Shown here piece after piece: positions 21,520-60,598 of a stretch of DNA of 64,000 nucleotides (its first letter is position 1; every line of letters starts with the position of its first letter). Made by a program: the position numbers and the translations under genes. The notes under the pieces were generated by a model. It searched no databases. It saw only the letters and a list, made by a program, of their open reading frames with translations, and was not told the DNA's origin. The stretch is from an uncultured Gammaproteobacteria bacterium (GTDB taxonomy: Bacteria > Patescibacteriota > Microgenomatia > Levybacterales > GWA1-39-11), in contig CAZYWG010000003.1 in the NCBI GenBank assembly GCA_964651815.1, forward strand, positions 52,531 through 116,530, given 5' to 3'.

Positions 21520-22716
21520 CTATTGGATTTGCGAAATTAATGCATAAATTGGAGTTATAACCGAGAGTATTAAGAATCCAACGGAAATACCTAGTGAAAT
21601 TATCAAAATAGGCTCAATCGCAGTTGTAAGAGTTTTGATTCTTACATCCAAATCACGTTCAAAATATTCTGATATTTTATTTAAACTGTCATCAATTTTT
21701 CCTGTTGATTCACCAACTTTAGCCATTTGGATAAGCATCGAGGGAAAAATATTTGTACTTTGCATAGCATCAGACAAAGAAATACCTTTTTCAACTAGCT
21801 CGCTTGTTGAAAGAATTGCAGTTTTGTACCAATAATTGTCCGCTACATTTGCAACAATATGAAGACTTTCAATTATAGATGCACCTGAAGCAACAAGTAG
21901 AGACAGAGTCCTTGATATTTCATTTAACGTGGAAAGCCTAATTATTTGTCCAAAAACTGGTAGTCTTAACTTGACTTTGTCAATTATTTTGATACCTTCT
22001 TCTGTTTTTTTAAATCTTTTATACAAAAAAACACCTACAACACCAAAAAGTATTCCGGGGATATAAAATGTTGTGAAGAATTTAGAAAAACCAAGTACTA
22101 TTCTAGTTGTGAGTGGAAGATTTAAATTTAAGTTTTGATACAAGCTCCCAAGTTGCGGAATAACAAAAACATTCATGATAATAATTACTACAATAACTCC
22201 CGTTATAACTATGGCCGGGTAAACAAGTGCCGACCTAACTTTCTTTTGGAGGTCATCTGATTTTTCAAGGTTATCAGCGAGTCTGCCTAGTACTTTATCA
22301 AGTAATCCGCCCTTTTCTGCGGCCTTAATAAGCGCTATATAAAGATTTGAAAAATAGGGCCTATGTATAGACAAGGCGTCAGAAAATGAAGTCCCTTCTG
22401 AAATTTGCACTATTAAATCATTTATTATTTCCTGCATTCCTTGACTTTGAACTTGGTCTTTGAGTATTTTCAATGACTCCATAAGCGTGAGGCCCGTTAG
22501 CGCCATAGATGAAAGCTGACGCGTGAAAATAATGATATCCGAGTTTTTAACTTTTTTAAAAAAGAGAAATCCCGAAGTATCATCTATTTTTCTTACGGAC
22601 AAAGGGGTGATGTTGGCAGTGCGTAAAAAATCTATAACCTCACGCTCGTTATTTGCTTCAATTTTTCCTTTTGCTTTGAGTGAATTTTTGTCAACTCCTG
22701 TGTAGATAAATTGCAT
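21520..22716 (-). CDS. pilC: type IV pilus inner-membrane platform protein PilC (GspF family)
   Basis: 398 aa; two T2SSF-type repeats with TM segments; adjacent to pilT and pilB. Confidence 0.85.
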   Translation of the reverse strand: MQFIYTGVDKNSLKAKGKIEANNEREVIDFLRTANITPLSVRKIDDTSGFLFFKKVKNSDIIIFTRQLSSMALTGLTLMESLKILKDQVQSQGMQEIINDLIVQISEGTSFSDALSIHRPYFSNLYIALIKAAEKGGLLDKVLGRLADNLEKSDDLQKKVRSALVYPAIVITGVIVVIIIMNVFVIPQLGSLYQNLNLNLPLTTRIVLGFSKFFTTFYIPGILFGVVGVFLYKRFKKTEEGIKIIDKVKLRLPVFGQIIRLSTLNEISRTLSLLVASGASIIESLHIVANVADNYWYKTAILSTSELVEKGISLSDAMQSTNIFPSMLIQMAKVGESTGKIDDSLNKISEYFERDLDVRIKTLTTAIEPILIISLGISVGFLILSVITPIYALISQIQ

Positions 22717-22719
22717 AAG

Positions 22720-23784
22720 TTAGCCGAGAAGTTGCATAAATGTATCCATCCTTAGAGCATAGGTGCGTGCCGTTTCGAGGGAAATTCTTCCTTCTCTAAC
22801 TAAAATTGCAAGAGAAGATTCAAGAGGAATCATGCCGATGTCTTGAGACGTTTCTATTATAGAATCAATAAGATGAGTTTTTGACTCACGAATGTTAGAC
22901 CTAACGGCGTTGTTTGCAATTAACACCTCGCATGCCGCTACCCGCCCGCCGTCAATTCTAGGTATTAGGCGCTGGGAAATAATCCCTCCAAGAGACGCGG
23001 CAAGCTGCGTCCTTATTTGATTTTGTTGTCTGTCAGGGAATGAATCAATTATTCTATCAATACTTTGCGCGGCAGAATTTGTGTGAAGTGTTGAAAAAAC
23101 CAAGTGACCTGTCTCGGCCACAGTAATTGCTGACGCAATACTTTCAGGATCTCTCATTTCACCAATTAACAAAACGTCAGGATCTTCACGCAAGGAACTT
23201 TTGAGCGATTCCCCCCAGGAAAGAGTATCTATGCCTACTTCTCTTTGAGAAATAATGCTTTTTCCCTTTGGGTAAACATATTCAATAGGATCTTCAACAG
23301 TTACAATGTTTCTTGCATCTGTTGTATTAATTTCATTAATTATTGAGGCAATGGTAGTTGATTTGCCGTGTCCTGTGGGTCCTGTGACTAGAATAAACCC
23401 TTGTCTCAACTTAGCAAATTCATGGCAAATTTGCGGAATATTGAGTTCTTCAATGGTTTTGACGCGCGCCGGCAATAAACGGAAAGCCCCGGCAATTGTT
23501 CCCCTCTGGTAATAAAGATTTATTCTGAAACGCCCTAATGCCCCATAATCTCCTCCACCGTAGCCGTAAGAAAAATCTATACATCTATTAACGGCAAGCA
23601 TTTCTTTTTGTGCAGGACTTATTATCGAAAAAACAAGCTCCTCAATGTCTTTTTCTGTCAAAGGTTGGTAATTAAGTGAAACGAGTTTGCCATCAACTCT
23701 TATTGTTGGTACAACACCAACAACAAGGTGCAAATCCGACGCGTTTGCCCCAATAGTTTTATCGAAAAGTTCACTTATAGTCAT
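22720..23784 (-). CDS. pilT: twitching-motility retraction ATPase PilT
   Basis: 354 aa; Walker A GPTGHGKSTT, and the PilT-specific C-terminal AVRSNIRESKTHLID (AIRNLIRE motif). Confidence 0.85.
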   Translation of the reverse strand: MTISELFDKTIGANASDLHLVVGVVPTIRVDGKLVSLNYQPLTEKDIEELVFSIISPAQKEMLAVNRCIDFSYGYGGGDYGALGRFRINLYYQRGTIAGAFRLLPARVKTIEELNIPQICHEFAKLRQGFILVTGPTGHGKSTTIASIINEINTTDARNIVTVEDPIEYVYPKGKSIISQREVGIDTLSWGESLKSSLREDPDVLLIGEMRDPESIASAITVAETGHLVFSTLHTNSAAQSIDRIIDSFPDRQQNQIRTQLAASLGGIISQRLIPRIDGGRVAACEVLIANNAVRSNIRESKTHLIDSIIETSQDIGMIPLESSLAILVREGRISLETARTYALRMDTFMQLLG

Positions 23785-23834
23785 AAATAGTTATTAATAG
23801 TTTAATGTCTTTTAACTTATCTCTTACTTCTTAA

Positions 23835-25667
23835 TTACTCCTGCGCCACTCTCAAAATTTCATCCATAGTCGAAATTCCTTCCAGAACCTTAAGATATCC
23901 ATCCTGTTTCATTGTTACCATTCCCTCCGCTTTTGCTTGATTCTCTATCTCTGTCGCATCGCTTTTGTTTAAAATTAACCTTGCAACTTTTTCGCTCACC
24001 TGTAAGACTTCAAAAATCCCTACCCTTCCAATATAACCCGTATGCCCGCAAATATCACATCCCTGACCTTGGTAAAGCCTTATCTCCGATTCGGGTATAG
24101 TCAAAAGACTCCCCAAATTTTTTTTGAGTTCTTCAATCAAAGCGCGAGCAGGTAGATAGTCTTTTTTACAATTTTGGCAAACCTTTCTTGCAATTCGCTG
24201 CCCTACAATTGCGTTCATTGTGGATGCAATCAGGAAAGGTTCTGCGCCCATGTCAATCAAACGCGGGAGCGCGCCTGAAGCGTTTGAAGTATGGATTGTT
24301 GAAAATACTAAATGTCCGGTAAGTGAAGCCTGAATAGCAAGATCTGTCGTTTCTTTATCACGAATTTCACCAACAAGTATGATATTTGGATCTTGTCGTA
24401 AAAAAGAGCGCAATCCTGTTGCAAAAGTGAGACCTACATCAGGATTGATTTGGACTTGGTTTGCCCCCGAAATTTGATATTCCACAGGGTCTTCAAGTGT
24501 GACAATGTTGACTCGTGTTGTATTGAGTTTTGATAACACAGAGTACAAGCTGGTGGTTTTCCCAGAACCTGTTGGTCCACAAACAAGAATTATACCGTGC
24601 GGTCTTAAGATTGAGGCTTCAAGTGACCGCAGCCCTGTTCCTCGCAATCCAAGCTCGGCAAGCGTTGGGACTCCTCCTGATTTTTTGAGAAGTCGCATAA
24701 CAATTTTTTCACCAAATGAAATAGGCAATGTGCTCACGCGGAGATCTACCTCTTCATTCCCAAATTTAAAATTGAAACGTCCATCTTGGGGTATCCTATG
24801 TTCGTCAATTTTCATGTCGGAAAGAATTTTAATTCTCGAAAGTACTGCTTCTTTTACGGCAAGAGGTAACGCAAGCCTTTCATACAATATTCCGTCAATT
24901 CTGTATCTTACGCGAATTCTGTCTTCTTGAGGCTCCAGATGTACGTCTGACGCCTTACTTTTTATTGCATATTCAAGAATTGTTGAAACAATTTTTGCAA
25001 TTGGAGCCTCTTTAATTACGTCACTTATCGAGTTTTTATCAAATGTTTTTACTCCTGTTATTTCTTCCGTTTCTTTAAGCGCGGCTTTTACATCTCCAAC
25101 AAGTCCAAACGTATACTGATTCTGTATGGCAGTTTTGATTTCGCCCGGGATAGCCTGAAATGTTAAGATAATCTTGTTTGTTTTTTGCTTAAGAAAGTTA
25201 ACTGTTTCAAGGTCAAGTGGATCCCCCATTGCAATAGACAACGTATTTTTTTCTTTGTCATATGCAAATGGAATAATATTAAATCTGTCTGCAACTGCTT
25301 TATTTACATAACTCATTGATTCCGGGGAAAAAGGAAGATTTGCAACTGAAACAAACGGTATTCCAATTAATTTTGCCCGGGTTTCATAAAAAATTTCATC
25401 ACTTACAAATTTTGAATCAAGCAAGACTTTATCAACGGGTAATTCTTTTTGGACTGCCGCGAATTTAACCTTATCGTATTGTTCTTGATTAATTGCTCCA
25501 TCATGGAAAAGTATGCCGGCAATGTCTTTCCCCTGCGCCTGAGAGGAAGCTCCGGCAGTCTGAGCTTGCGAAGTTTGATTTGAAATTGGATTGTTTTGGG
25601 CAGGATCCATAATTTTTGCTACTCGTTTTTCGTCATTTGTTTTTTTGTGCCTAAACTCACAACACAA
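23835..25667 (-). CDS. pilB: type IV pilus assembly ATPase PilB (GspE family)
   Basis: 610 aa; Walker A GPTGSGKTT, tetracysteine Zn motif CQNCKK...CDICGHTG, and an N-terminal GspE_N-like domain. Confidence 0.85.
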   Translation of the reverse strand: MCCEFRHKKTNDEKRVAKIMDPAQNNPISNQTSQAQTAGASSQAQGKDIAGILFHDGAINQEQYDKVKFAAVQKELPVDKVLLDSKFVSDEIFYETRAKLIGIPFVSVANLPFSPESMSYVNKAVADRFNIIPFAYDKEKNTLSIAMGDPLDLETVNFLKQKTNKIILTFQAIPGEIKTAIQNQYTFGLVGDVKAALKETEEITGVKTFDKNSISDVIKEAPIAKIVSTILEYAIKSKASDVHLEPQEDRIRVRYRIDGILYERLALPLAVKEAVLSRIKILSDMKIDEHRIPQDGRFNFKFGNEEVDLRVSTLPISFGEKIVMRLLKKSGGVPTLAELGLRGTGLRSLEASILRPHGIILVCGPTGSGKTTSLYSVLSKLNTTRVNIVTLEDPVEYQISGANQVQINPDVGLTFATGLRSFLRQDPNIILVGEIRDKETTDLAIQASLTGHLVFSTIHTSNASGALPRLIDMGAEPFLIASTMNAIVGQRIARKVCQNCKKDYLPARALIEELKKNLGSLLTIPESEIRLYQGQGCDICGHTGYIGRVGIFEVLQVSEKVARLILNKSDATEIENQAKAEGMVTMKQDGYLKVLEGISTMDEILRVAQE

Positions 25668-25732
25668 AAAAACGACGAGCGAATCGCGGTTAGCTAATTC
25701 AATCGTACGAAATATATTGATATAATGTCAAT

Positions 25733-26371
25733 ATGCGTGCATATGTTTTAATTGGTGGTCAGTCTCAAAAAGAAAAGTACATTTCCGAATTCGTTCAAAA
25801 AAACCATGTTATGCCCTACTATATATATAGATATACTGAGTCATTGAAAATATTGGAGGCAAAAGATATAAAGAAAAAACTCGCCGTGAGTTCTTCGAGC
25901 CAGAAATTATTCATTATAGAATCAGTTCCCACACTTGAATCGCAAAATGCATTACTTAAAACTATTGAAGAATTGCCAGAGGACGCTGACTTTATGTTTT
26001 TAGACGGATCAGGACTTTTGCCGACTGTTGTATCAAGATGCACAATTATAAATTTAGAGCCTGAGCAAATACTTTCGTCGGGGGAATTGGAAACATTGCT
26101 TTCAAATTTATTGGAAAGCAATGCAAGCTATAATTTGCCTTCGGTTATGTTATTTGTTGATAAATTTTCTGAGAAAGATTTTGAAATTGAAGAAATAGAA
26201 CGTGCAATGAGAGAAATAATGTTTAAATTTATAAATACCAAAAATTACTCCTCTGCCCTTTTGGCAGAAAAATTACTGAAAAAATTAATTGATAAAAATT
26301 TGCTTATCAAATACAATAATTTAAACAAACGACTTGTCTTGGAAACGATCTTTCTAAATAATCTTCGATAA
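25733..26371 (+). CDS. hypothetical soluble protein (no recognised motif)
   Basis: 212 aa ORF divergent from pilB and immediately upstream of the pilin array; no TM and no recognisable motif. Confidence 0.4.
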   Translation: MRAYVLIGGQSQKEKYISEFVQKNHVMPYYIYRYTESLKILEAKDIKKKLAVSSSSQKLFIIESVPTLESQNALLKTIEELPEDADFMFLDGSGLLPTVVSRCTIINLEPEQILSSGELETLLSNLLESNASYNLPSVMLFVDKFSEKDFEIEEIERAMREIMFKFINTKNYSSALLAEKLLKKLIDKNLLIKYNNLNKRLVLETIFLNNLR

Positions 26372-26391
26372 ATCAAGGCTAAATTGCCCTA

Positions 26392-26420
26392 TTGACAATG
26401 TATTATGTTTATGGTTATTA
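26392..26420 (+). promoter_or_regulatory. candidate sigma70-like promoter for first pilin (TTGACA -35; weak TTATTA -10)
   Basis: Canonical TTGACA at 26392-26397 with 17-bp spacing to TTATTA at 26415-26420, about 12 bp before the probable pilin ATG at 26432. Confidence 0.3.
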
Positions 26421-26431
26421 TTAATTACAAC

Positions 26432-26956
26432 ATGAAAACTGCTCAATTCGCTAAAGCAAATCTTCGCAAAGGATTCACTCTTATTGAACTTCTTGTAGTC
26501 ATTGCAATCTTAGCTGTTTTGGCAGTAATAGTTTTGACTGTAATAAACCCGGGTAACAGAATTGCATCTGGTAAAAATGCAAGAGTTAGGGCAGATCTTG
26601 CGTCAATTGGACGAGGTGCTACTCTATTTTACTCTGATACTAGCTCTCCTCAGAGTCCTGCTTGTACTCTCCCCGGTTCATATCCTGACGCATTTGGAGT
26701 TACCGCTGCAGGATGTACACAGATTGCATTTCAGGCAACCGTGAATGATCCTGATGGATCTGCATATGTTATAAATAAAACTCCTCCAACTTGTACCGCT
26801 GGTGGAACTACTGCTTGCACAGGATTTGCAATAGCAGGTCCGGCATACACTGACAACGTAATAAACGCAGGTTCACTTAAGGCATGGTGTTGGCAAGCTA
26901 AGACCGGAACAATAACTCAAGTAACAGATAAAACAACTACAAACTGCGCCCCATAA
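26432..26956 (+). CDS. type IV pilin (major pilin candidate A)
   Basis: Class III signal MKTAQFAKANLRKG|FTLIELLVVIAILAVLAV with Glu at +5. The ORF track starts at 26405, but the in-frame ATG at 26432 gives a 14-aa leader. C-terminus has 6 cysteines, 4 in the shared tail. Confidence 0.8.
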   Translation: MKTAQFAKANLRKGFTLIELLVVIAILAVLAVIVLTVINPGNRIASGKNARVRADLASIGRGATLFYSDTSSPQSPACTLPGSYPDAFGVTAAGCTQIAFQATVNDPDGSAYVINKTPPTCTAGGTTACTGFAIAGPAYTDNVINAGSLKAWCWQAKTGTITQVTDKTTTNCAP

Positions 26957-26980
26957 ATAATTGGAGTTGATAAAGAGTCA

Positions 26981-27004
26981 AGCCGGGTTTGCCCGGTTTT
27001 TTTA
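26981..27004 (+). terminator. rho-independent terminator after pilin A
   Basis: CCGGGtttgCCCGG hairpin followed by TTTTTTTATTT, 25 bp after the pilin stop. Confidence 0.55.
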
Positions 27005-27269
27005 TTTGCAAGAAAAATATTTGGTGCGATGCTTTCCATAAATAAGAAAGTTGGAATCAGACTTATACTTCACAATGAAAAACTTTTTATTTTAAATTTT
27101 GAGTTTTTCAGTAAATTAAACCTTGAGAGTAATTTCTAAGTCACAAAGTACAAGCAAAATAGTTCTTGGATTAATTTTATAAGCGCAGGTACCTTCAGTT
27201 TCTTATGGAGCTTGACACCTATCTTGATTTATGTTTTGCTTATTGTAGGTATTAAATATGTAACTTACA

Positions 27270-27833
27270 TTGGTTATGGAATTTATGGGATTTGCACAAA
27301 AGAAAAAGTATTTATCATTTCTTAGTTCTCATTTCTTAGTTGCCAAAGGATTCACCCTTATTGAACTTCTTGTAGTCATTGCAATATTAGCAGTATTGGC
27401 AGTAATAGTTTTGACAGTAATAAATCCGGGTAAAAGAATTGCATCAGGTAAAAATGCAAGAGTTAGGGCAGATCTCGCGTCAATTGGCCGTGCGGCTACA
27501 CTCTTTTACACCGATACTGCTTCGCCTCAAAACCCCACTTGTACTACCCCAAGTTCATATCCAGAAGCATTTGGAGTTACTGCTGGAGGATGCGGTACAA
27601 AGGTTGCATTTCAGGCAACTGTAAATGACCCTGATGGATCTGCATATACTATAAATGTTCCTACTGGGTGTTCTGCTAGTGGAGCAACAGCCTGCACAGG
27701 ATTTGCAATTGCAGGTCCGGCATACACTGACAACGTAATAAACGCAGGTTCACTTAAAGCATGGTGTTGGCAAGCAAAGACCGGAACAGTAACTCAGGTA
27801 ACAGATAAAACAACCACAAACTGCGCCCCATAA
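27270..27833 (+). CDS. type IV pilin (paralog B of pilin A)
   Basis: KG|FTLIELLVVIAILAVLAV prepilin motif. N-terminal about 60 aa and C-terminal about 50 aa are near-identical to pilin A (...TGFAIAGPAYTDNVINAGSLKAWCWQAKTGT[I/V]TQVTDKTTTNCAP) with a divergent middle. Confidence 0.8.
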   Translation: MVMEFMGFAQKKKYLSFLSSHFLVAKGFTLIELLVVIAILAVLAVIVLTVINPGKRIASGKNARVRADLASIGRAATLFYTDTASPQNPTCTTPSSYPEAFGVTAGGCGTKVAFQATVNDPDGSAYTINVPTGCSASGATACTGFAIAGPAYTDNVINAGSLKAWCWQAKTGTVTQVTDKTTTNCAP

Positions 27834-27920
27834 ATATCAAACGTTTTCTTGACAACATATTAAGTTCTTGTTTAAACTTATTAAGATCTTGCTTAAACTA
27901 AAAGAAGGTACGTACAATTT

Positions 27921-28496
27921 ATGAAATCGCCTAAAAAACTCTCATCTACTATTTCTCATTTCTCACCTCAAAAAAGATTTGTCCTGAGCTTGCCTGCGGG
28001 ATTCACCCTTATTGAACTTCTTGTAGTCATTGCAATCTTAGCAGTATTGGCAGGAATGGTTTTATTAATAATAAATCCTGGCAAAAGAATTGCTTCATCA
28101 AAAGATGCAAATGTTAAATCTGACATCACAACCCTAGCTGTTGCTTTGCAAGGTTATTACACGGCTCAAGCTTCCACGCAATATACCACCACTTTAGATG
28201 GTTTGGTAACGTCAGGTGAATTAAAATCGGTGCCGAAACAGCAATCAGGAAATATTACTTGTCCTGCTGCTGCTGCTGGTTCTACGCTGAATGTTTCTGG
28301 GACGGCGGGTACGACTGGTTATTATTATTGCTATTATACGGTTACCGTGTCGGGCGCTGTGACTTCTGTAGCTGTCATGGGTAGTCTTTTCAACGTTGCT
28401 TCAAACACATGGCATTGTTGGGATTCAAATACCGGTGCATATAAATCTTCAACCACCGCTGCCCCAACAGTTGCCTCAAGCCAGCTAAGCTGTTAA
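27921..28496 (+). CDS. type IV pilin-like protein (S/T-rich)
   Basis: 27-aa leader then AG|FTLIELLVVIAILAVLAGMV; Ser/Thr/Gly-rich C-terminal domain with a Cys pair. Confidence 0.75.
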   Translation: MKSPKKLSSTISHFSPQKRFVLSLPAGFTLIELLVVIAILAVLAGMVLLIINPGKRIASSKDANVKSDITTLAVALQGYYTAQASTQYTTTLDGLVTSGELKSVPKQQSGNITCPAAAAGSTLNVSGTAGTTGYYYCYYTVTVSGAVTSVAVMGSLFNVASNTWHCWDSNTGAYKSSTTAAPTVASSQLSC

Positions 28497-28554
28497 ATCA
28501 TAACCTTGTTATACCGCGTATAAACAGGATAGGCGGATATATCAGCCAAACCAA

Positions 28555-30633: not shown

Positions 30634-30721
30634 ATCATAAGGGGCGTTTTTTACTACTTGCTTTTATATATTGTTTTTGGCTGGGGTTTACATTTACAAA
30701 ACATTATCTTAAACTTTTAAA

Positions 30722-31516
30722 GTGCAAATATATCTAGGTTTTATTTTCTTTATAATTGGCACCGCAGTCGGGAGTTTTTTAGGGGTTGTTATAGACCGCC
30801 TACCTAGGAAAAAATCAATATGGGTTGGACGGTCTGTTTGTGACTCTTGCCACAAAAAGCTTACGCCAATCGAACTTGTACCCGTCGTTTCATATATAGT
30901 CCAGGGTGGTAAGTGCAGAAAGTGCCATGCTAAACTTCCGCTTAAGCTTCTCATTTGCGAGGTTTTAACAGGCCTGGCTTTTGTTTTAGTGTATCTTGTT
31001 TTTCCCCTTTCAGCCTTCCATTTTCAACCCACTCTTTTTACGTTCTTCACTATTCTTTATCTACTTCTCGTGATGTGTCTTAATATTGTTATCTTTTATA
31101 TAGATCTGGATTTTGGGATTATTCCAGACGAATTAATAGGAGTTTTTGTTATTACGGCCCTGCTTTACAACTTTATTTTTTTCAGAGTTGGTTTTATTGT
31201 TCACATTTTCTCGGGCTTAGGAGCTTTTTTACTATTCTTATTCCTATATCTTATAACGCGAGGCCGTGGAATGGGTTTTGGGGACGTAAAATATGCTCTT
31301 GCAATTGGTCTGTTTTTGGGATTTCCAGCCATAATAGTAAGTCTTTACTTTGCTTTCTTGACAGGCGCGGCAATTTCACTAATACTTATAGTATATGGGA
31401 ATAAACATCTTAAAAGCTCCATTCCGTTTGGTCCGTTCTTGGCTGCTGGGACTATCTTTGCCTGTTTTTGGGGAGAAAGCGCAATTAAATTTATTTTCAA
31501 AGTTTTCAATTGGTAA
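30722..31516 (+). CDS. pilD: prepilin peptidase PilD (A24 family)
   Basis: 264 aa; N-terminal Zn-binding CDSCHKKL...CRKCHAKL tetracysteine motif, polytopic, conserved GFGDVKYALAIG region around the catalytic Asp. Confidence 0.85.
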   Translation: MQIYLGFIFFIIGTAVGSFLGVVIDRLPRKKSIWVGRSVCDSCHKKLTPIELVPVVSYIVQGGKCRKCHAKLPLKLLICEVLTGLAFVLVYLVFPLSAFHFQPTLFTFFTILYLLLVMCLNIVIFYIDLDFGIIPDELIGVFVITALLYNFIFFRVGFIVHIFSGLGAFLLFLFLYLITRGRGMGFGDVKYALAIGLFLGFPAIIVSLYFAFLTGAAISLILIVYGNKHLKSSIPFGPFLAAGTIFACFWGESAIKFIFKVFNW

Positions 31517-32033
31517 AAATAACTTTTTTGCCCCTCGCCTCTTATCTTCCCAGGGTTTCACCCTCATTGAACTTCTTGTAGTCATAGCAATTCTCGGAAT
31601 TCTCTCTTTCGTTTTAACAACTACAATCAATCCACTTGATAAAATTAACGCTGCAAATGACGCAAGAGCCATTTCCACAATAACTCAACTTGGCAAGGCA
31701 ATGGATTCATGCGAAACATTTCATGATGATGCAAAACCATCTCCTGCCGGGAATTCGTTCTTTCCTGACTCTATATGTGACTTAAACACTGTTGAGGAAG
31801 TTAAATTTACTACAATTGCCGCAATAAATAATTATACATTTTACTATTTTGTAACGCCCGCAACCTGCAAAAACAATAAGTCAGTCAAATGTACGGGCTA
31901 CCTATTTGGTATTGGTACGCTAGCGTCAAAAAAATTCATAGCTAAGCCCTACTTTGTTTATACGAACGGAAAAGGTTGTTACATTGGTAATATTCCATCT
32001 TTGTCAAGTATTGGAGCCACATCTTGCCCATAG
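31395..32033 (+). CDS. type IV pilin-like protein (start uncertain; 5' end overlaps pilD)
   Basis: Contains QG|FTLIELLVVIAILGILS. The only ATG in frame (31395) lies 120 bp inside pilD and gives a 51-aa leader; the true start is probably a non-ATG codon nearer 31520-31545. Confidence 0.6.
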   Translation: MGINILKAPFRLVRSWLLGLSLPVFGEKAQLNLFSKFSIGKNNFFAPRLLSSQGFTLIELLVVIAILGILSFVLTTTINPLDKINAANDARAISTITQLGKAMDSCETFHDDAKPSPAGNSFFPDSICDLNTVEEVKFTTIAAINNYTFYYFVTPATCKNNKSVKCTGYLFGIGTLASKKFIAKPYFVYTNGKGCYIGNIPSLSSIGATSCP

Positions 32034-32089
32034 AAAAAGTCTTTATCAACAACAGAATCCATTTTATTGGTTTTTAAAATCACATTTTC

Positions 32090-32629
32090 TTGACAGCACC
32101 CCATAATTATTTCATACTAAGTGTAATGCATAAAAAAGGATTTACATTAATCGAATTGGTTGTTGTAATTACAATACTCAGTATTCTTGCAGTTGTTCTT
32201 GTTACGCTTCTCAATCCAGTTACCCAATTTCAAAAGACTAACGATACACAGAGGAAAAGTGATTTGTATCAAGTCCAGAAGGCTTTGGAAACATATTATG
32301 CCGACCATGGTAGTTATCCAATAAGCACGGGTGCCTACACTATAAGTGACAGTAATGGAGCGCACGCCTGGGGTACTAACTGGCCTTCTTATATGGATGT
32401 ATTGCCGCAGGATCCCAAAACAGCGTCTGGTAAAACATACATTTATTATTCTCTCGATGGGCAGAGCTATAAACTTTATACAAATCTTGAGCGCGGCGGC
32501 AATGACCCTCAGGCATGTAATGTCAGTGGTACGGATTGTCCCCACGTCCCGGGAAATCCAGGGTCAAACTTGTGTGGTGGTGGCAGCTCATGTAATTATG
32601 GGCTTTCAAGTCCAAACGTATCGCCGTAA
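32090..32629 (+). CDS. GspG/PulG-like pseudopilin
   Basis: KKG|FTLIELVVVITILSILAVVLVTLLNPVTQFQKTNDTQRKSDLYQVQKALETYYADHGSYP matches the T2SS-G/minor pilin N-domain consensus. Confidence 0.75.
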   Translation: MTAPHNYFILSVMHKKGFTLIELVVVITILSILAVVLVTLLNPVTQFQKTNDTQRKSDLYQVQKALETYYADHGSYPISTGAYTISDSNGAHAWGTNWPSYMDVLPQDPKTASGKTYIYYSLDGQSYKLYTNLERGGNDPQACNVSGTDCPHVPGNPGSNLCGGGSSCNYGLSSPNVSP

Positions 32630-32668
32630 GAGATTGATTAAATATTAGATATTATATATTATAAAAAT

Positions 32669-33157
32669 ATGCCCAAAGCTATCCTAAAAAAGTCCACGGT
32701 CCGTGGTCCACAGTCTACTGCTTCCGGCTTTACGCTTATCGAATTACTAGTTGTTATTAGTATAATTTCTATTCTAGCGTCTCTGCTTTTGGCAAATTTT
32801 GTTGGAATAAGGCAGCGAGCGCGCGACGGACAAAGAAAATCAGACCTTCGCCAAATCCAAGGCGCACTCGAGTTATACCGCGCTGACAATGGTGCCTATC
32901 CTACTCCCGCAAGCGGAATTACACTAGTTACTTGTAATTCAGCTTTTAGTAACGGTACTACGGTGTATATGTCCAAAGTTCCGTGTGATCCTTTATCATC
33001 AACGGGTTACAACTCCGCCAATTACGGATATTCATCAGCTGGCACTACCTATAATTTGTGTGCTTGTTTGGAAAACGCAAACGATCCTGATATTAATACT
33101 ACAAACGGCACTCTTGGCTGCACCAGCACAAAATTTATCTGTTACACCAACCCATAA
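32669..33157 (+). CDS. GspG/PulG-like pseudopilin
   Basis: SG|FTLIELLVVISIISILASLLLANFVGIRQRARDGQRKSDLRQIQGALELYRADNGAYP. Confidence 0.75.
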   Translation: MPKAILKKSTVRGPQSTASGFTLIELLVVISIISILASLLLANFVGIRQRARDGQRKSDLRQIQGALELYRADNGAYPTPASGITLVTCNSAFSNGTTVYMSKVPCDPLSSTGYNSANYGYSSAGTTYNLCACLENANDPDINTTNGTLGCTSTKFICYTNP

Positions 33158-33168
33158 AACTCTAAGAA

Positions 33169-33738
33169 ATGAAAAATGAAAGAAAGATTAATTCCCAGGT
33201 ATTATCAGCCTCAACAGAAAGCAACAAAAAGGGTTTTACCCTAATCGAGCTTTTAGTCACTTTTTCTATACTTTCAGTTTTAGCTTCAATTGGGTTTCTA
33301 TCTTTTGTAACTTATAGCAGAAAACAAATCATTCAACAGTCTGCCTCAGATTTAAAACAAGCAATTGACATTGCAAGGAATAATTCACTCTCAGTGGTAA
33401 AACCAGCGGGCTGCCCTGCAAACAGCGAGCTGTCTTCATATATAGTCAGCATTTGCGTAGGGGGTAATCCTACATGTAATGTTGGCGGAACTATTTATAC
33501 AGGCAACAATTATTATGAAACACGTGCTAATTGTCAACCAACGCAAGTCGTATCACTTCAAAAAAAGCTTCCACAAAATGCTTCATTTGGAGGCAGCAGT
33601 CCATGTCAAAATATTACGTTTGCAAGTGTCCGTCCGCAGACAACCGGGGTTCCATGTGCTGTTAATATAACGCTTAACGGTCAAACTTTAACAGTTTCAG
33701 TAGATTCACAAGGATACGTATCATTTCCTACAAACTAG
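33169..33738 (+). CDS. minor pilin-like protein
   Basis: KKG|FTLIELLVTFSILSVLASIGFL prepilin motif, 23-aa leader. Confidence 0.65.
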   Translation: MKNERKINSQVLSASTESNKKGFTLIELLVTFSILSVLASIGFLSFVTYSRKQIIQQSASDLKQAIDIARNNSLSVVKPAGCPANSELSSYIVSICVGGNPTCNVGGTIYTGNNYYETRANCQPTQVVSLQKKLPQNASFGGSSPCQNITFASVRPQTTGVPCAVNITLNGQTLTVSVDSQGYVSFPTN

Positions 33739-33751
33739 TATTAAAAATTTT

Positions 33752-34249
33752 TTGTTTTTGGATATGTTTATGAAAAAGAATTGGTCATTTATAGTTGGTT
33801 CTGAAGGGCAAAGCATAATAGAAGCGCTTGTTGCGCTTTCTTCCATTTTAATTTCACTCGCAGCAATTTCTGTTGCAATAATAACAAGTGTCAACAACAC
33901 ACAGTTCATAAAAGACCAATCTATCGCTTCAAAATACGCACAACAAGGCATGGAATACATAAAATATATTAGGAATAATGACCCCGCGACTTTCTTTTCT
34001 TACAATGGCATAAAATGTATGAACCAGGACGATTCCTTTTTAAATACATCATGTTCCAGTGCAAACATAGCTGGAGCATATAAGAGAGAGGCTGAATTTA
34101 GTCAAAATGATTCTCAATGTGTCGCAGCAACCAAGGTAACCGTCACAGTTTACTGGACAAGTACTAAGTGTCAAAGTGGATCTTTTTGTCATTCCTCATC
34201 ACTAATATCCTGTTTTTCAACAATACCCGTTTCTCTTAAATCCTTATGA
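33752..34249 (+). CDS. minor pilin-like protein (PilV-like)
   Basis: GQS|IIEALVALSSILISLAAI: degenerate class III signal with Glu+5 retained; Cys-rich C-terminus. Confidence 0.5.
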   Translation: MFLDMFMKKNWSFIVGSEGQSIIEALVALSSILISLAAISVAIITSVNNTQFIKDQSIASKYAQQGMEYIKYIRNNDPATFFSYNGIKCMNQDDSFLNTSCSSANIAGAYKREAEFSQNDSQCVAATKVTVTVYWTSTKCQSGSFCHSSSLISCFSTIPVSLKSL

Positions 34250-34803
34250 CAAAACACAAAATAAATCAGAAAATTTTTGGATATACGGTTATAGAACTTC
34301 TGGCAGTTGTTTCAATTTTGGTTATAATAGCCGGTGTAGTATCAGGTATTTTGTATTCAACTCTACGTGGAAGCGGCAAGGTGAAAGTTACTGGCGAAAT
34401 AATTCAAAATGGCCAATATGCTATATCTGTTGTTAGGTCTATTATTGACGACTCACGTAATGTTACGCTTATTGATGGCGTTGCGCCTGATTGTACGCAG
34501 CCTATTCCTACTCCTGGTGCATCTTCAATCACATTTAAACGATTAGATAATACTACGACTACAATTTCGTGTGTAGGACCACCTTCCTATGCTATTGCTT
34601 CAAACAGTGCGTCGCTTGTTAACACCCAAAGTGTTAAGATACAAAACTGCATATTTTCGTGTGCTCAGCTAGTAAGCGATCCTTACTCCGTGCCAATAAT
34701 TAACGTTACATTTACAGTTTCAGACCGTGGTACGGGATTATTTGAAAGTCGTGCTTCCTCAGTATTTACAACCTCCTCTTCTCTTAGGAGTTATTCCCCG
34801 TAA
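34246..34803 (+). CDS. minor pilin-like protein (PilW-like)
   Basis: FG|YTVIELLAVVSILVIIAGVV; start overlaps the upstream stop (ATGA). Confidence 0.5.
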   Translation: MTKHKINQKIFGYTVIELLAVVSILVIIAGVVSGILYSTLRGSGKVKVTGEIIQNGQYAISVVRSIIDDSRNVTLIDGVAPDCTQPIPTPGASSITFKRLDNTTTTISCVGPPSYAIASNSASLVNTQSVKIQNCIFSCAQLVSDPYSVPIINVTFTVSDRGTGLFESRASSVFTTSSSLRSYSP

Positions 34804-34874
34804 AAATTCCGGGCACAACTGTCCGTTTCGAGCGAGGGTTGACACGCTCATTCATTTTTATTTATGATAGATAT

Positions 34875-35699
34875 ATGGTAAAAAACCCAAATTCAGGGCA
34901 AATGCTTCTTGTTGTGGTTTTGACAATGATTGTTGCGCTCACTGTGGGTTTATCAGTCGCCTCAAGAACGGTTACCAACCTCAAACTTTCACGCCAAAAT
35001 GATGAGTCAGAACGCGCTTTTCAAGCAGCAGAGGCTGGGGTTCAGCAAGTTTTACAATCGGGAAGCGCACTTAACAACCCAAATTTTCAAAATAACGCTA
35101 CATATAATATCGGATCCGTTTCTCATTTAAACGGCGCGAGTATTGGGCTTAATGGTGGAGAGATTGTTGACCAGGATTCTGGGCTTGATGTCTGGCTTTC
35201 AAATTATCCCGATTTTAGTAGCACTATGGGAAACGGTAGTGCTGCTAGCATTACGTTGTATTGGGGTACAGATAATCAGACTACATGCAATACAGGTGGT
35301 TTATCAAACGTTAAATCCGCTCTTGAAATTGCCATACTTTCAGGAAACAAGCTGAATCCCACATTTACTAAAAATTTATATGAGGCAAACACTTGTGGAA
35401 GAATTGCCGGCGCTCTTGCTCCAACCGGTGGGAACGTTACTCCAAGCGGCACAAGCGTTCACTACCAAAATTACGTGACTTTTACAGTTACAAACGGTTT
35501 GATTATGAAAGTAATTCCCATTTATAATTCTTCAAAGATTTTTGCGATATCAAATACAGGGGGCGTAACTTTTCCTCCACAAGGGACCCTGGTGCAGGCA
35601 ACTGGGACTGCCGGAGATACAGTCCGCAAAATAACATATTTTGCTTCTTACCCTCAGATACCTGTTGAAATGTTTCCATATGCACTTATTACACAATGA
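34875..35699 (+). CDS. PilX-like minor pilin (PilX_N domain)
   Basis: MVKNPNSGQMLLVVVLTMIVALTVGLSVASRTVTNLKLSRQNDESERAFQAAEAGV matches the PilX N-terminal pattern (..ALVVALL..LG..S.....AGN....AF.AAEAG). The ORF track starts at 34839; the internal ATG is preferred. Confidence 0.55.
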   Translation: MVKNPNSGQMLLVVVLTMIVALTVGLSVASRTVTNLKLSRQNDESERAFQAAEAGVQQVLQSGSALNNPNFQNNATYNIGSVSHLNGASIGLNGGEIVDQDSGLDVWLSNYPDFSSTMGNGSAASITLYWGTDNQTTCNTGGLSNVKSALEIAILSGNKLNPTFTKNLYEANTCGRIAGALAPTGGNVTPSGTSVHYQNYVTFTVTNGLIMKVIPIYNSSKIFAISNTGGVTFPPQGTLVQATGTAGDTVRKITYFASYPQIPVEMFPYALITQ

Positions 35700-36727
35700 A
35701 AACAAAAACAATTGGCCTTGATATAGGAAGCACCTCTATCAGGGTTGCACACTTAAGGCATGAAGGAAATTCCTTTACCCTCGACTCTATTGCATCTATG
35801 CCGCAAAATACAAACGGATTGATATCCGATTCATTACTTGACCAGCAAGGGCTTGCAGATTCGATAAAAAAACTTATTTCTTCAGCAAATATTCACACCA
35901 AGGAAGTTGTGCTTTCAATTCCTGATAGCATGGTTTATACCAAAATAATACAAATGCCACAGCTTTCAGACCAAGAATTATCTGCAGCTTTAAAATTTGA
36001 AATGGAACAATACATACCTCTCCCAGTTGATCAGGTAAAGACAGATTGGGAAGTGCTTAGTAGGAATGAAACAAGTGGGAAAAAGACAATGAATGTCATG
36101 ATTGTTGCGGCCCCTCTCTCACTTCTTTCAAAATATGAAAAAATTATGGACATGGCGGGCTTGCTACCTGATGCAATTGAGACTGAGATTGTATCTGCCC
36201 ACCGTTCATTATTACCGCTAATTAACAATCCCGAGGCAAATATGATTGTGCATATTGGAGCCATAACTACAAGCATTGCAATAGTTAAAGAAGGTAAAAT
36301 AAAAATGATTTTTTCGCTAGGGCTTGGTGGGGCAGCTATGACTCGCTCAATATCAGTTGATCTTGGTATAGATATATCGCAAGCTGAAAATTACAAAAAA
36401 GCTTATGGACTTTCACAATCGGCATTTGAAGGGAAGATCGCAAAAGTCCTTGACCCTGTTTTGACATCTATAGTAGCAGACGTTAAAAAAGCAATGCTAT
36501 CTTACCATGAAAAAAATAACAACGAAAATATTAAACAATTGGTTTTGTCGGGCGGCTCCTCTCTCCTCCCAGGACTTGATGTTTATCTAACAAACGCATT
36601 ATCCACTCAAGTAGTTTTGGGTCGTGCTTGGTCTGCTTATAACATTTCAAATATACCTGATGAGTTACAGTCCCAAGCACCCGCATACAATGTAGCGATT
36701 GGTTTGGCTCTACGTAATTTAGTATGA
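35696..36727 (+). CDS. pilM: type IV pilus assembly protein PilM (actin-like ATPase fold)
   Basis: 343 aa; N-terminal IGLDIGSTSIRVAHL phosphate-1 motif and ...VLSGGSSLLPGL adenosine motif; start overlaps the pilX stop. Confidence 0.8.
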   Translation: MKTKTIGLDIGSTSIRVAHLRHEGNSFTLDSIASMPQNTNGLISDSLLDQQGLADSIKKLISSANIHTKEVVLSIPDSMVYTKIIQMPQLSDQELSAALKFEMEQYIPLPVDQVKTDWEVLSRNETSGKKTMNVMIVAAPLSLLSKYEKIMDMAGLLPDAIETEIVSAHRSLLPLINNPEANMIVHIGAITTSIAIVKEGKIKMIFSLGLGGAAMTRSISVDLGIDISQAENYKKAYGLSQSAFEGKIAKVLDPVLTSIVADVKKAMLSYHEKNNNENIKQLVLSGGSSLLPGLDVYLTNALSTQVVLGRAWSAYNISNIPDELQSQAPAYNVAIGLALRNLV

Positions 36728-37263
36728 AAGAAGATATAAACCTAGTCCCTCAAAAAAAAGAAGAACGAAAAATGTTAAACAACTATTTTTATGCTTCTTT
36801 GGGATTTTTTTCAGTGATGTTTTTGTTAGGTGCACTGCTTATCGCTTATTCATTAATAATTAGGGCTGGACTTGGGGGACTTACAAATGAGGAAGCAAAT
36901 GTCCGTTCACAGCTCACTGCACTATCTGGGAGAATAGGTAAAATTGCTTTGGTAAATGAACGTACGGACTCTATAAAAAATATTATTTCAAATCGGGATA
37001 AATTGACTATTTTGACTTCAAATCTTCTTGCCGCAATCCCTAATACTTTCACAATATCTTCACTAGTTGGGACAGATAAAGCAATACAACTTGCAATATC
37101 ATCAAATAGTTTAGCCGATTTTGACAATTTCTTTGAGCAAATCGTTCCTAAACTTGCAAAAAATAAGCTTTCAAGTATTTCCTCGGTAGAAATTAGTTCG
37201 TTTAGCCAGGATGGGGATGGGTACTCACTATCTGTGAGTTTTTTATTAAGTCAGCCTAAATAA
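36724..37263 (+). CDS. pilN: type IV pilus assembly protein PilN
   Basis: 179 aa, bitopic (cytoplasmic N-terminus, one TM, periplasmic coiled-coil/ferredoxin-like domain); 4-bp overlap with pilM (ATGA). Confidence 0.6.
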   Translation: MKEDINLVPQKKEERKMLNNYFYASLGFFSVMFLLGALLIAYSLIIRAGLGGLTNEEANVRSQLTALSGRIGKIALVNERTDSIKNIISNRDKLTILTSNLLAAIPNTFTISSLVGTDKAIQLAISSNSLADFDNFFEQIVPKLAKNKLSSISSVEISSFSQDGDGYSLSVSFLLSQPK

Positions 37264-37267
37264 TTAT

Positions 37268-37918
37268 ATGAAGTATAAAATTCCGGAAATTATTATTAAA
37301 CATAAAAAAATATTAACTCCACTGCTTTTTATAGTATTGGGTATATTTGTGTTGTTGTTTATAATAATACCTCAATTTTCAACTATTTCTGATTTAAATA
37401 ATCAGGTTGCTGCAGAAAATGATAAAGTAAATACACTTAAAAATTCTCTGCAAGTTGTTTCATCCCAAGATGACCAAGACTTAAACGCAAAAGTGGGAAT
37501 TGCAACGGATGCATTGCCTACAGCAAAAGATGTATCAAGAATTTTTTCGGCGCTATCCCAAGCTTCTGATGCTTCCCAAACAGTACTTGGAGAATTTTCT
37601 TTGAACGTTGGAGCAATATACGGTCGTGCTCAGCAACTGGAAGGAAAAATACAAGGGACCCCGTCAATTACCGTAAATGTACGTGTTGAAGGTAATGGTG
37701 CTCGGGAGCTTTCTGATTTTGCAAAAGACTTGCAAAAAGCACTTCCTCTTTCGGAAATTAGACAAATGGGAATTTCTGACAATTCAGCTTCTTATCAAAT
37801 CAACTTTTTTTATAAGCCTGTAGATTTATCGGTTATATCAAAACAAGACAAGGTTGTTCTTCCAAATCAGAATGCCGTGAATTTGCTTAATGAGCTTAAA
37901 ACTTGGGAAAGCCAATAA
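37268..37918 (+). CDS. pilO: type IV pilus assembly protein PilO
   Basis: 216 aa bitopic protein with coiled-coil (NQVAAENDKVNTLKNSLQ) immediately after pilN. Confidence 0.55.
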   Translation: MKYKIPEIIIKHKKILTPLLFIVLGIFVLLFIIIPQFSTISDLNNQVAAENDKVNTLKNSLQVVSSQDDQDLNAKVGIATDALPTAKDVSRIFSALSQASDASQTVLGEFSLNVGAIYGRAQQLEGKIQGTPSITVNVRVEGNGARELSDFAKDLQKALPLSEIRQMGISDNSASYQINFFYKPVDLSVISKQDKVVLPNQNAVNLLNELKTWESQ

Positions 37919-60589: not shown

Positions 60590-60598
60590 AATTATTGC

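Follow-up and report, generated by a model that had tools for sequence, protein, structure and literature searches.

A probable monoderm-type retractile pilus locus in a Levybacteria-related CPR bacterium, with a GT-C/TPR glycosyltransferase gene beside its pilin genes

Type IV pilus genes that come without a secretin raise the question of which machine they build: a retractile pilus leaving a cell built as in single-membrane bacteria, a diderm pilus whose secretin is encoded elsewhere, a DNA-uptake apparatus, or a secretion system. This question is posed by positions 21520-37918 of the window, as the whole 64-kb stretch of analysed DNA is called here. The best reading of the locus, with a probability of about 85%, is a type IVa-like pilus system that is chromosomal, has been inherited vertically in a Levybacteria-related CPR bacterium and is built as in single-membrane bacteria.

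Gene content, order and lineage

The minus strand carries pilC, pilT and pilB, and the plus strand ten prepilin-like genes, a GT-C/TPR glycosyltransferase gene, pilD and pilM-pilN-pilO; all the named components were located at the following coordinates, with E-values or bit scores of the matches in brackets.

21520..22716, minus strand: pilC, inner-membrane platform protein (Pfam T2SSF in two stretches, E 1.6e-59)
22720..23784, minus strand: pilT, retraction ATPase (TIGR01420 PilT/PilU family, 431 bits, cut-off 319.1)
23835..25667, minus strand: pilB, extension ATPase with N-terminal MshEN (T2SSE 6.5e-129, MshEN 3.2e-10)
25733..26371, plus strand: holB-like gene, DNA polymerase III delta' (Pfam DNA_pol3_delta2 2.1e-12; TIGR00678 holB 5e-12, below cut-off)
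26405..26956, plus strand: pilA1, major-pilin candidate (N_methyl 6.1e-9)
27270..27833, plus strand: pilA2, tandem paralogue of pilA1 (N_methyl 2.8e-7)
27921..28496, plus strand: pilA3, third, divergent pilin, directly upstream of the GT-C gene (N_methyl 1.8e-7)
28555..30633 (called start 28582), plus strand: GT-C-fold glycosyltransferase, TMEM260-like/DUF2723, with C-terminal TPR (TMEM260-like 9.4e-24, PMT_2, TPR_11)
30722..31516, plus strand: pilD, prepilin peptidase/N-methyltransferase (A24_N_bact 1.5e-28, Peptidase_A24 6.1e-14)
31395..32033, plus strand: pilin 4 (N_methyl 1.6e-7; G|FTLIEL)
32090..32629, plus strand: pilin 5, GspG-like (N_methyl 3e-8; T2SSG 6e-5, 23.5 bits, cut-off 21; TIGR01710 GspG 1.6e-14, below cut-off)
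32669..33157, plus strand: pilin 6, GspG-like (T2SSG 2.3e-7; N_methyl 1.1e-6; TIGR01710 7.9e-18, below cut-off)
33169..33738, plus strand: minor pilin 7, FimU/GspH-like (N_methyl 1.7e-8; position kept in relatives)
33752..34249, plus strand: minor pilin 8, putatively PilV/GspI-like (non-canonical G|QSIIEAL with Glu5; kept in relatives)
34246..34803, plus strand: minor pilin 9, in the PilW/GspJ-like position (weak N_methyl, E 0.0077; G|YTVIELL with Glu5; kept in relatives)
34839..35699, plus strand: minor pilin 10, PilX-like, the largest, without Glu5 (PilX_N 17.6 bits, below cut-off for the single protein)
35696..36727, plus strand: pilM, actin-like cytoplasmic alignment protein (PilM_2 4.9e-55; TIGR01175 210 bits, cut-off 133)
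36724..37263, plus strand: pilN (profile of relatives to Myxococcus xanthus PilN, 3jc8, E 2.1e-6)
37268..37918, plus strand: pilO (profile of relatives to M. xanthus PilO, 3jc8, E 1.3e-11, and to Pseudomonas aeruginosa PilO, 2rjz, E 6.3e-5)

Domain, family or profile matches thus bear out the strands and identities that the preliminary description had given to pilC, pilT, pilB, pilD, the GT-C/TPR gene and pilM-pilN-pilO. Its view of a complete pilus locus holds as far as every machinery part was matched, but has to be amended at 25733-26371, where the predicted product is holB-like and unrelated to the pilus system, though the gene is kept beside pilB and adjoins it in most related loci.

The nearest relatives of PilB (60-75% identical) belong to Patescibacteria/CPR, mostly Candidatus Levybacteria, and the locus has no compositional anomaly. 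The operon structure is conserved in related genomes: across Microgenomates the genes are the same and stand in the same order, gyrA-ppa-gyrB-(holB)-pilBTC-pilin-(GT-C)-pilD-minor pilins-pilMNO-trmD. In the window, pilBTC has the opposite orientation to the pilin/pilD/pilMNO block, a layout shared only by L003 and L004, its two closest relatives. Several true gene starts probably lie downstream of the mechanical ORF starts, judging from the gene calls of L081 and, for pilA1, from a promoter-like site.

Motor, platform, peptidase and alignment proteins

The PilT sequence contains AVRSNIRE, which resembles the PilT motif AIRNLIRE; with 354 aa only, it is devoid of the N-terminal MshEN/GspE-N domain. 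The retraction ATPase noted in the preliminary description is therefore present, TIGR01420 being matched above its curated cut-off. PilB contains a CxxC...CxxC tetracysteine; its translation probably begins at the ATG near 25610 (MDPAQ...), and alignments with its relatives set in only at about residue 13-50. The pilC gene is kept after pilT in all CPR loci compared, and PilD displays both CxxC...CxxC and GFGDVK motifs.

PilN, whose gene overlaps pilM by 4 nt, has an N-terminal INLVP motif and a single TM helix. As single sequences, PilN and PilO gave zero Pfam or NCBIfam matches, and they were identified by profiles built from relatives, which were matched to the Myxococcus PilN and PilO of PDB entry 3jc8. 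The locus hence contains the constituents of a type IVa pilus (T4aP), namely a PilB/GspE-family extension ATPase, PilT, PilC and PilD, pilins with class III signals, and PilM-PilN-PilO.

Ten prepilin-like proteins

The preliminary description had counted ten pilins with the class III signal G|FTLIEL. Ten prepilin-like ORFs are indeed found, all with a class III-type signal whose cleavage is predicted from the motif, but the canonical G|FTLIEL occurs in 7/10 only, the others having G|QSIIEAL, G|YTVIELL and G|QMLLVVV. Glu5 is found in nine of them and is absent only from the PilX-like pilin (G|QMLLVVV), the N_methyl cut-off is passed by seven of the ten, and the cysteine count is even in every mature pilin.

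The three genes at the major-pilin position differ in their relatedness. PilA2 and PilA1 share 86.5% identity over 163 residues but differ in leader and upstream DNA, while PilA3 resembles PilA1/2 (about 55% identity) only in its N-terminal 65-83 residues; Ser and Thr make up 25% of mature PilA3. PilA1 has six cysteines, among them two at the C-terminal end that lie about 20 aa from each other; its real start is likely the ATG at 26432, giving the leader MKTAQFAKANLRKG|FTLIEL. Of the promoter-like sites in the region, the best (TTGACA-18-TATTAT, 26392-26421) lies by pilA1 and a terminator-like hairpin (26980-26999) follows it, both being consensus matches only. The PilA1 structure prediction, with a pLDDT of 46, was too poor for use.

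Downstream of the glycosyltransferase gene, pilin 4 likely starts at the TTG at 31458, with a 59-nt overlap with the end of pilD; this later start is suggested by a 191-aa gene call in identical DNA (L081) and by sequence reading. Likely starts were also placed at 32126 for pilin 5 (MHKKG|FTLIEL) and at 34875 for minor pilin 10 (MVKNPNSG|QMLLVVV). Pilins 5 and 6, which are 45.5% identical, both match T2SSG, in agreement with the two GspG-like pilins of the preliminary description. Its PilV/W/X-like pilins stand in part: PilX_N is matched by 11/13 members of the minor pilin 10 family (best E 1.8e-7), a gene kept just upstream of pilM in relatives, while the names PilV and PilW derive from gene order and from motifs or faint matches. 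Minor pilin 8 gave zero Pfam matches and faint NCBIfam ones (PilV E 0.036, GspI E 0.048), so that its putative name follows gene order and motif, and minor pilin 9 is tentatively named from gene order alone. Among NCBIfam models, minor pilin 7 scores best on prepilin peptidase-dependent protein (2.6e-8) and on GspH (4.2e-8), reaching the cut-off in neither case.

The number of pilins had been considered high for a small, compact genome; this judgement is not upheld, a large pilin repertoire per genome being a described hallmark of CPR bacteria (PMC6744442).

A pilus system without a secretin

As the preliminary description had stated, PilQ and PilP are missing: among the 56 ORFs of at least 150 aa within the 64-kb window, none has a Secretin, Secretin_N, PilP or GspD-type domain. 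PilP and PilQ are absent after pilO because a convergent trmD ends 4 nt downstream, where their genes would sit; in relatives, too, trmD comes straight after pilMNO. PilT, PilM-PilN-PilO, the CPR lineage and the absence of a secretin from the 64 kb therefore fit the monoderm-type retractile pilus that had been proposed for this locus, and not a diderm T4aP or a type II secretion system (T2SS). CPR loci with PilB/T/C/M/N/O/D and no PilQ have been reported in CPR generally (Meheust et al. 2019, PMC6744442) and in Microgenomates Ch65 (Kadnikov et al. 2020, PMC7143001), so this reading is supported but already known.

It could be argued that the locus belongs to a classical diderm T4aP, with PilQ and PilP encoded elsewhere in the genome, since the contig is at least 161 kb long, of which the window covers 64 kb, and pilQ lies apart from the other pil genes in some bacteria. 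This is highly improbable, the least probable of the alternatives: besides the position of trmD, outer-membrane protein families were not seen in the window, and a large genome survey of CPR bacteria did not detect PilQ, their envelope being apparently not Gram-negative (PMC6744442, PMC7143001). As 64 kb were examined, a secretin outside them is excluded by this lineage literature and not directly; the missing secretin is real, but already published for CPR and not unusual for the lineage. Only slightly less improbable is a type II secretion-like pseudopilus machine that exports proteins and forms no surface pilus. PilB does score equally on the PilB (TIGR02538) and GspE (TIGR02533) models, with 550 bits each, the best NCBIfam model for PilC is GspF (1.4e-97, against 2.7e-87 for PilC), and to the two GspG-like pilins are added minor pilins that follow the GspH-I-J-K pattern. 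However, the PilB score is below both cut-offs, PilC is below both equivalog cut-offs and the GspE/F/G scores are all under theirs; moreover, the PilT-family ATPase is encoded between pilB and pilC, PilM/N/O stand in place of GspL/M/C, neither GspD nor GspC nor GspL/GspM was detected within the 64-kb window, and CPR cells bear pili that have been characterised genetically (PMC11623550).

A dedicated DNA-uptake (competence) pilus, reeling in extracellular DNA for a nucleotide-starved symbiont and serving neither adhesion nor motility, deserves more attention, but is still unlikely. CPR bacteria are reported to have type IV pili and widespread competence components, and uptake has been proposed for them (PMC6744442, PMC7143001); uptake by a T4aP needs PilT-driven retraction, and one GspG-like pilin faintly matches ComP_DUS (E 0.006, below cut-off). 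Against this, comEC, comEA and dprA are absent from the locus and from the 64-kb window, and the ComGA (251.7, cut-off 300) and ComGB (155.4, cut-off 240) scores are well below both these thresholds and the scores of the PilB/PilC-type models. The "competence-like" label of the preliminary description is thus conjectural. A ComG pilus, with ComGA/GB/GC-type parts, is devoid of PilT and PilMNO, both of which are present here, and experiments in Saccharibacteria tie such pili to host binding and twitching, some pilin genes proving impossible to delete (PMC11623550). The functions of DNA uptake and of adhesion or motility can coexist and are not mutually exclusive.

Comparison with known pili and proposed mechanism

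The monoderm-type retractile pilus proposed here shares with the described CPR loci (PMC6744442; Ch65, PMC7143001; TM7x T4P locus one, PMC11623550) PilB/T/C/D/M/N/O, major and several minor pilins in a single locus, pilins weakly similar to T2SS pseudopilins, the absence of PilQ, a small genome and a PilX-like protein as the largest minor pilin. It differs from them in the inverted orientation of pilBTC, in the number of genes at the major-pilin position (three, of which two are near-identical) and in a GT-C/TPR glycosyltransferase inside the locus, which is unmentioned in those three reports. The single-membrane model Streptococcus sanguinis also has a secretin-less T4aP-type machine, with highly similar tandem major pilins, PilE1 and PilE2, whose heteropolymeric fibre can power twitching (PMC10628169). 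PilA1 and PilA2 parallel this pair and might likewise form a co-polymer; however, S. sanguinis belongs to an unrelated phylum, and its minor pilins PilA, PilB and PilC have adhesin modules, unlike the GspH-I-J-K-like set of the window.

In the mechanism that we infer, the ten prepilins would enter the cell membrane, where PilD would cut them after the conserved Gly and probably N-methylate them. The GT-C/TPR enzyme would most likely act on the outer side of the membrane, moving a sugar from a polyprenyl-phosphate donor to the pilins before these are assembled. The four minor pilins (FimU/GspH-, PilV/GspI-, PilW/GspJ- and PilX-like) would prime assembly and end at the tip, while PilB, acting via the PilC platform and held by the PilM-PilN-PilO scaffold, would polymerise the putative major pilins PilA1/PilA2 and perhaps PilA3. 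The fibre would exit through the wall without a secretin because, as proposed, an outer membrane is absent, and PilT would depolymerise it, leading to retraction. Host-cell attachment and twitching are the likely uses, DNA uptake a possible one.

A GT-C/TPR enzyme beside the pilins

Since the loss of the secretin is already published, the only fresh lead from this locus is the glycosyltransferase gene, which sits between the major pilins and pilD; no report of such a TMEM260-like (DUF2723) GT-C/TPR enzyme encoded beside pilin genes was found in the literature searched. The protein belongs to PF11028 (84.6 bits, cut-off 24.2). Its AF2 model has a pLDDT of 93.4 and retrieved with Foldseek PglB, DPY19, STT3, ArnT, ALG9/12, Emb and Pmt1-2, as well as the TPR domain of OGT. 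After TM1, in the first outer loop, the enzyme has an acidic GDxGD motif that is at least 90% conserved.

Among the closest known systems is TfpW, the pilin arabinosyltransferase of P. aeruginosa Pa5196/PA7 (bioRxiv 10.1101/2020.04.19.049825). Both proteins are membrane GT-C enzymes that measure about 650-690 aa and have about 11 TM helices. Their first outer loop contains an acidic motif, their C-terminal part is a large TPR domain outside the cytoplasm, and both genes lie immediately downstream of a pilin gene; the likeness drawn here is one of architecture and position. Unlike TfpW, the window enzyme belongs to the TMEM260-like/DUF2723 Pfam family and has no pathway for arabinose or another donor nearby. 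As its architecture and position mirror those of TfpW, it is a candidate pilin O-glycosyltransferase, and the chances that it glycosylates the pilins of this locus may be put at about even.

We know of no bacterial member of the TMEM260 family with a demonstrated function. The human protein is a protein-specific O-mannosyltransferase, whose C-terminal TPR repeats are thought to select the protein substrate (PMC10214176), and it shares with the window enzyme PF11028, a GT-C module followed by a C-terminal TPR, and a conserved Asp in the first luminal or outer loop. The identity between the two is, however, very low, the donor would be a bacterial polyprenyl-phosphate and not dolichol-phosphate, and the proposed clients are pilins and not the IPT domain.

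The association extends beyond this locus: the GT-C gene is directly beside a pilin gene in 8/8 PilB-anchored CPR loci that carry it, a GT-C homologue has pilin or pilus-machinery genes no more than a few kb away in all nine independently sampled contexts, and the adjacency to pilin genes persists through three different gene arrangements. A dedicated pilin O-glycosyltransferase in many CPR pilus loci is accordingly a tentative suggestion, held with a little less than even confidence. If true, it would be the first function assigned to bacterial members of the family of human TMEM260, and the enzyme would be the CPR counterpart of TfpW; glycosylated pili could then influence how episymbiotic ultra-small bacteria recognise their hosts or escape phages.

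Against glycosylation of the pilins, no donor-synthesis gene (GT2) was found within the 64-kb window, and pilins adjacent to a GT-C gene are not richer in Ser/Thr than pilins without such a neighbour (p = 0.36). The pilins of the window also differ in C-terminal type from the GT-C-adjacent pilins of the closest relatives.

Pilus Locus and Machinery

The type IV pilus locus extends from the 3′ end of pilC at 21520 to the stop codon of pilO at 37918, as obtained from the ORF listing and translation, and these ends coincide with those of the preliminary description. The pilC, pilT and pilB genes are on the minus strand; the plus strand carries, in order, a holB-like gene, pilA1-pilA3 at the major-pilin position, a gene for a GT-C/TPR membrane protein, pilD, seven further prepilin-like genes, pilM and two genes for small single-TM proteins.

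Genes of the pilus locus other than pilins (window positions)
Minus strand: PilC, two T2SSF domains (Pfam, E 1.6e-59)
Minus strand: PilT, 354 aa, TIGR01420 at 431 bits against a curated threshold of 319
23835-25667, minus strand: PilB, T2SSE (6.5e-129) and N-terminal MshEN (E 3.2e-10)
25733-26371, plus strand: holB-like DNA polymerase III delta′, 212 aa, not a pilus gene, between pilB and the pilins
28555-30633, plus strand: GT-C/TPR membrane protein, 692 aa, TMEM260-like/PMT_2 and TPR matches
Plus strand: PilD, both A24 N-terminal and peptidase domains
Plus strand: PilM, PilM_2 (4.9e-55), TIGR01175 above cut-off

Searches with Pfam, NCBIfam and profiles thus confirmed, with minor corrections, the gene content and strands described earlier, to which the holB-like gene, not mentioned before, has to be added. 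A holB-like gene lies beside pilB in most Microgenomates loci examined, and therefore this replication gene is stably embedded in the pilus neighbourhood. The MshEN fold, present at the N-terminus of PilB, binds cyclic-di-GMP in other bacteria.

The two small single-TM proteins following PilM matched no family model individually in Pfam or NCBIfam. Their assignment came from profiles built on homologues from related loci and compared with PDB sequences: the PilN profile retrieved Myxococcus PilN (E 2.1e-6), while the PilO profile retrieved the Myxococcus (E 1.3e-11) and Pseudomonas (E 6.3e-5) PilO. The putative PilN has INLVP at its N-terminus, which resembles the PilM-binding INLLP motif. Scans for tRNAs and Rfam families returned nothing related to the locus. 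The result is a cleanly annotated Levybacteria-type locus with every part assigned, including PilN, PilO and a PilX-like tip pilin, which are overlooked by standard models.

Pilins

A class III-type signal is found in all ten pilins, as first described; the canonical G|FTLIEL, which had been attributed to all of them, occurs in seven only. Two others have the variants G|QSIIEAL and G|YTVIELL, which retain Glu5, and the largest pilin has G|QMLLVVV, without Glu5; cap-type minor pilins lack Glu5. The cysteine count is even in every mature pilin.

Two pilins score above the threshold of the Pfam GspG model, in agreement with the two GspG-like proteins originally recognised. Taken singly, the largest pilin matches PilX_N below threshold, whereas 11 of the 13 members of its family match this model (best E 1.8e-7); the family profile gave chance-level matches only (E 0.16 or worse) against PDB sequences. 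The last four pilins follow the usual FimU/PilV/PilW/PilX or GspH/I/J/K order; for pilins 8 and 9 the names are putative, drawn from gene order and faint matches. In Saccharibacteria, minor pilins resemble T2SS pseudopilins (PMC11623550).

The pilA1 and pilA2 genes (26405-27833) form a tandem pair of paralogues: their mature parts share 86.5% identity, but the leaders and the DNA upstream are unrelated. The pair is reminiscent of PilE1/PilE2 of the monoderm model Streptococcus sanguinis, whose heteropolymeric pilus is formed from two near-identical tandem major pilins, a close parallel to the arrangement found here (PMC10628169). The region's best promoter-like site and a hairpin with a T-run flank pilA1, suggesting that this gene may have regulatory signals of its own; these are consensus matches only, since the overall counts were no higher than in shuffled sequence (promoters, 27 vs 24.3; terminators, 6 vs 5.5). 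Structure prediction of PilA1, for which the seven pilin paralogues of the window were aligned, had low confidence (pLDDT 46, pTM 0.27), and the model is suggestive only of a long N-terminal helix followed by strands. The fourth pilin gene apparently starts at a TTG within the 3′ end of pilD, with a 59-nt overlap (31458-31516) in a different frame; a comparable pilD/pilin overlap is seen in a related locus, L011.

Nature of the Pilus and Absence of a Secretin

The NCBIfam models do not discriminate PilB from GspE, which tie at 550 bits for the window protein, nor PilC from GspF, and therefore the type IV pilus assignment rests on PilT and PilMNO. A T2SS-like machine, which would be suggested by the GspE-, GspF- and GspG-like scores, is contradicted by the presence of PilT and PilMNO and by the absence of GspC, GspD, GspL and GspM from the window. 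Membership in the ComG-type competence pili is likewise excluded, since PilT and PilMNO occur in the locus and neither the ComGA nor the ComGB model reaches its cut-off. The T4aP-like pilus may still function in DNA uptake; no comEC, comEA or dprA gene occurs near the locus. In Saccharibacteria, such pili serve in host binding and twitching, and attempts to delete some of the pilin genes failed (PMC11623550).

No Secretin, Secretin_N, PilP or outer-membrane biogenesis domain was found by Pfam in any of the 56 window ORFs of at least 150 aa, which bears out the earlier statement that no PilQ or PilP is recognisable in the window. Moreover, only 4 nt separate pilO from the end of the convergent trmD gene, which leaves no room for pilP and pilQ at the position that they occupy in diderm operons. 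A secretin encoded elsewhere in the genome, unlinked to the locus, is unlikely, as the lineage argues against it. Indeed, Meheust et al. 2019 reported that PilB, PilT, PilC, PilM, PilN, PilO, PilD and an expanded pilin family are co-localised and enriched in CPR, in which they did not detect PilQ, in keeping with an envelope that is not Gram-negative (PMC6744442); the same single-locus system without pilQ was described in a closed Microgenomates genome by Kadnikov et al. 2020, whose conclusion matches that of the preliminary description (PMC7143001). The monoderm-type retractile pilus proposed there, with PilT as the retraction component, is therefore supported, although it is not novel: the system belongs to the well-described CPR kind of secretin-less T4aP-like pilus, of which it is one further instance, a published hallmark of Patescibacteria that opens no new question. 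The number of pilins, considered high for such a small genome, proved typical of the lineage, given the expanded pilin family of CPR (PMC6744442), and not surprising.

Lineage and Synteny

In a PilB scan with one genome per species, the best matches (60-75% identity) were MAGs labelled Patescibacteria group or Candidatus Levybacteria/Levyibacteriota, followed at 49-59% by Gottesman-, Woyke-, Davies-, Roizman-, Blackburn- and Pacebacteria; matches outside CPR appeared only at about 40%. When all window genes were compared by tblastn with the PilB-matched loci, the order gyrA-ppa-gyrB-(holB)-pilB-pilT-pilC-pilin(s)-(GT-C)-pilD-minor pilins-pilM(NO)-trmD was found to be widely kept in Microgenomates, so that the operon structure is conserved in related genomes. 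The only departure is an inverted pilBTC block, which the window shares with L003 and L004, its two closest relatives by synteny. The conserved order, together with a GC content that is ordinary relative to the window, indicates that the locus is a core feature of the clade, passed on vertically; horizontal acquisition was rejected on the same unremarkable GC content and on the synteny of the flanking gyrA, gyrB and trmD genes across the clade.

Many TPA MAG records titled “uncultured Gammaproteobacteria” (L003, L004, L006, L007, L011-L014 and others) display CPR-type synteny and a PilB 57-67% identical to that of the window; judging from these sequences, their labels look wrong.

The GT-C/TPR Gene and Its Linkage to Pilins

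The only element of these loci beyond the literature found is the GT-C/TPR gene, the rest being already described; no link between the TMEM260-like/DUF2723 family and pili was found in the literature searched, and pilin glycosylation in Patescibacteria has been explicitly termed unexplored (PMC11623550). The predicted structure of the protein is of high confidence (pLDDT 93.4), and its best structural matches are GT-C enzymes using lipid-linked donors, i.e., PglB, DPY19, STT3, ALG9/12, ArnT, Emb and Pmt1-2, while the C-terminus resembles TPR domains, including the one in OGT. Among 71 aligned homologues, a GDxGD motif is conserved to at least 90% directly past the first TM helix, the position where GT-C enzymes including TMEM260 have their catalytic Asp (PMC10214176). 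The detectable homologues, 184 in number, all appear CPR-derived.

Linkage to pilins was recorded in two samples. Among about 48 CPR loci anchored on PilB, a choice blind to the GT-C gene, eight carry it, in every case beside a pilin ORF; in seven the adjoining pilin is the one after pilC and immediately precedes the GT-C gene, and in L003 the sole detected pilin ORF lies beyond pilD. In contexts anchored on the GT-C gene and picked solely by length of the assembled piece, pilin genes or pilus machinery occur within a few kb in nine out of nine, in three different arrangements, often together with GT2, GT4, methyltransferase or YfhO genes.

Loci with GT-C/pilin linkage
Window 28555-30633; L003, L004, L011, L012, L015, L022, L025, L031, L082-L091

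The Pseudomonas pilin arabinosyltransferase TfpW is likewise a GT-C enzyme, with about 11 TM helices and a periplasmic TPR domain, whose gene is directly downstream of pilA (bioRxiv 10.1101/2020.04.19.049825). The window gene matches TfpW in architecture and position, features on which the two are likened, and not by sequence; on this analogy O-glycosylation of pilins is proposed for the GT-C/TPR enzyme, at about even odds. The proposal is weakened by the lack of a donor-synthesis gene in the window, and by the Ser/Thr content of GT-C-adjacent pilins, which is no higher than that of first pilins in loci without the GT-C gene (0.181 vs 0.171, Mann-Whitney p = 0.36). It is also weakened by the C-terminal type of the window pilins, which differs from that of pilins adjoining the GT-C gene in the nearest relatives. 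The recurrent linkage of a TMEM260-family GT-C gene to pilins is nevertheless the part worth pursuing, as a concrete, testable candidate for pilin glycosylation in Patescibacteria.

A “C-aromatic-aromatic-C” C-terminus, present in 6/7 GT-C-adjacent pilins and in 5/20 pilins from loci without the GT-C gene, was set aside as a mark of GT-C association, owing to this latter occurrence and to its absence from the window's own pilins.

Other Features of the Window

A stretch of about 1 kb (8534-9566), located between the genes for a DUF5656-like membrane protein and a trehalase, contains no ORF of at least 150 aa and has no tRNA or Rfam match. A tyrosine recombinase gene (11078-12031), with Phage_integrase and N-terminal SAM-like domains, is probably of the XerC/D type and not evidence of a mobile element; no further genes of phage character were seen in its surroundings. 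On the minus strand, at 59639-63294, a trio of genes codes for two proteins of 316 and 538 aa without Pfam match and for a radical-SAM protein, whose CxxxCxxC motif (C-AAY-C-RF-C) is, by eye, lysine-2,3-aminomutase-like.
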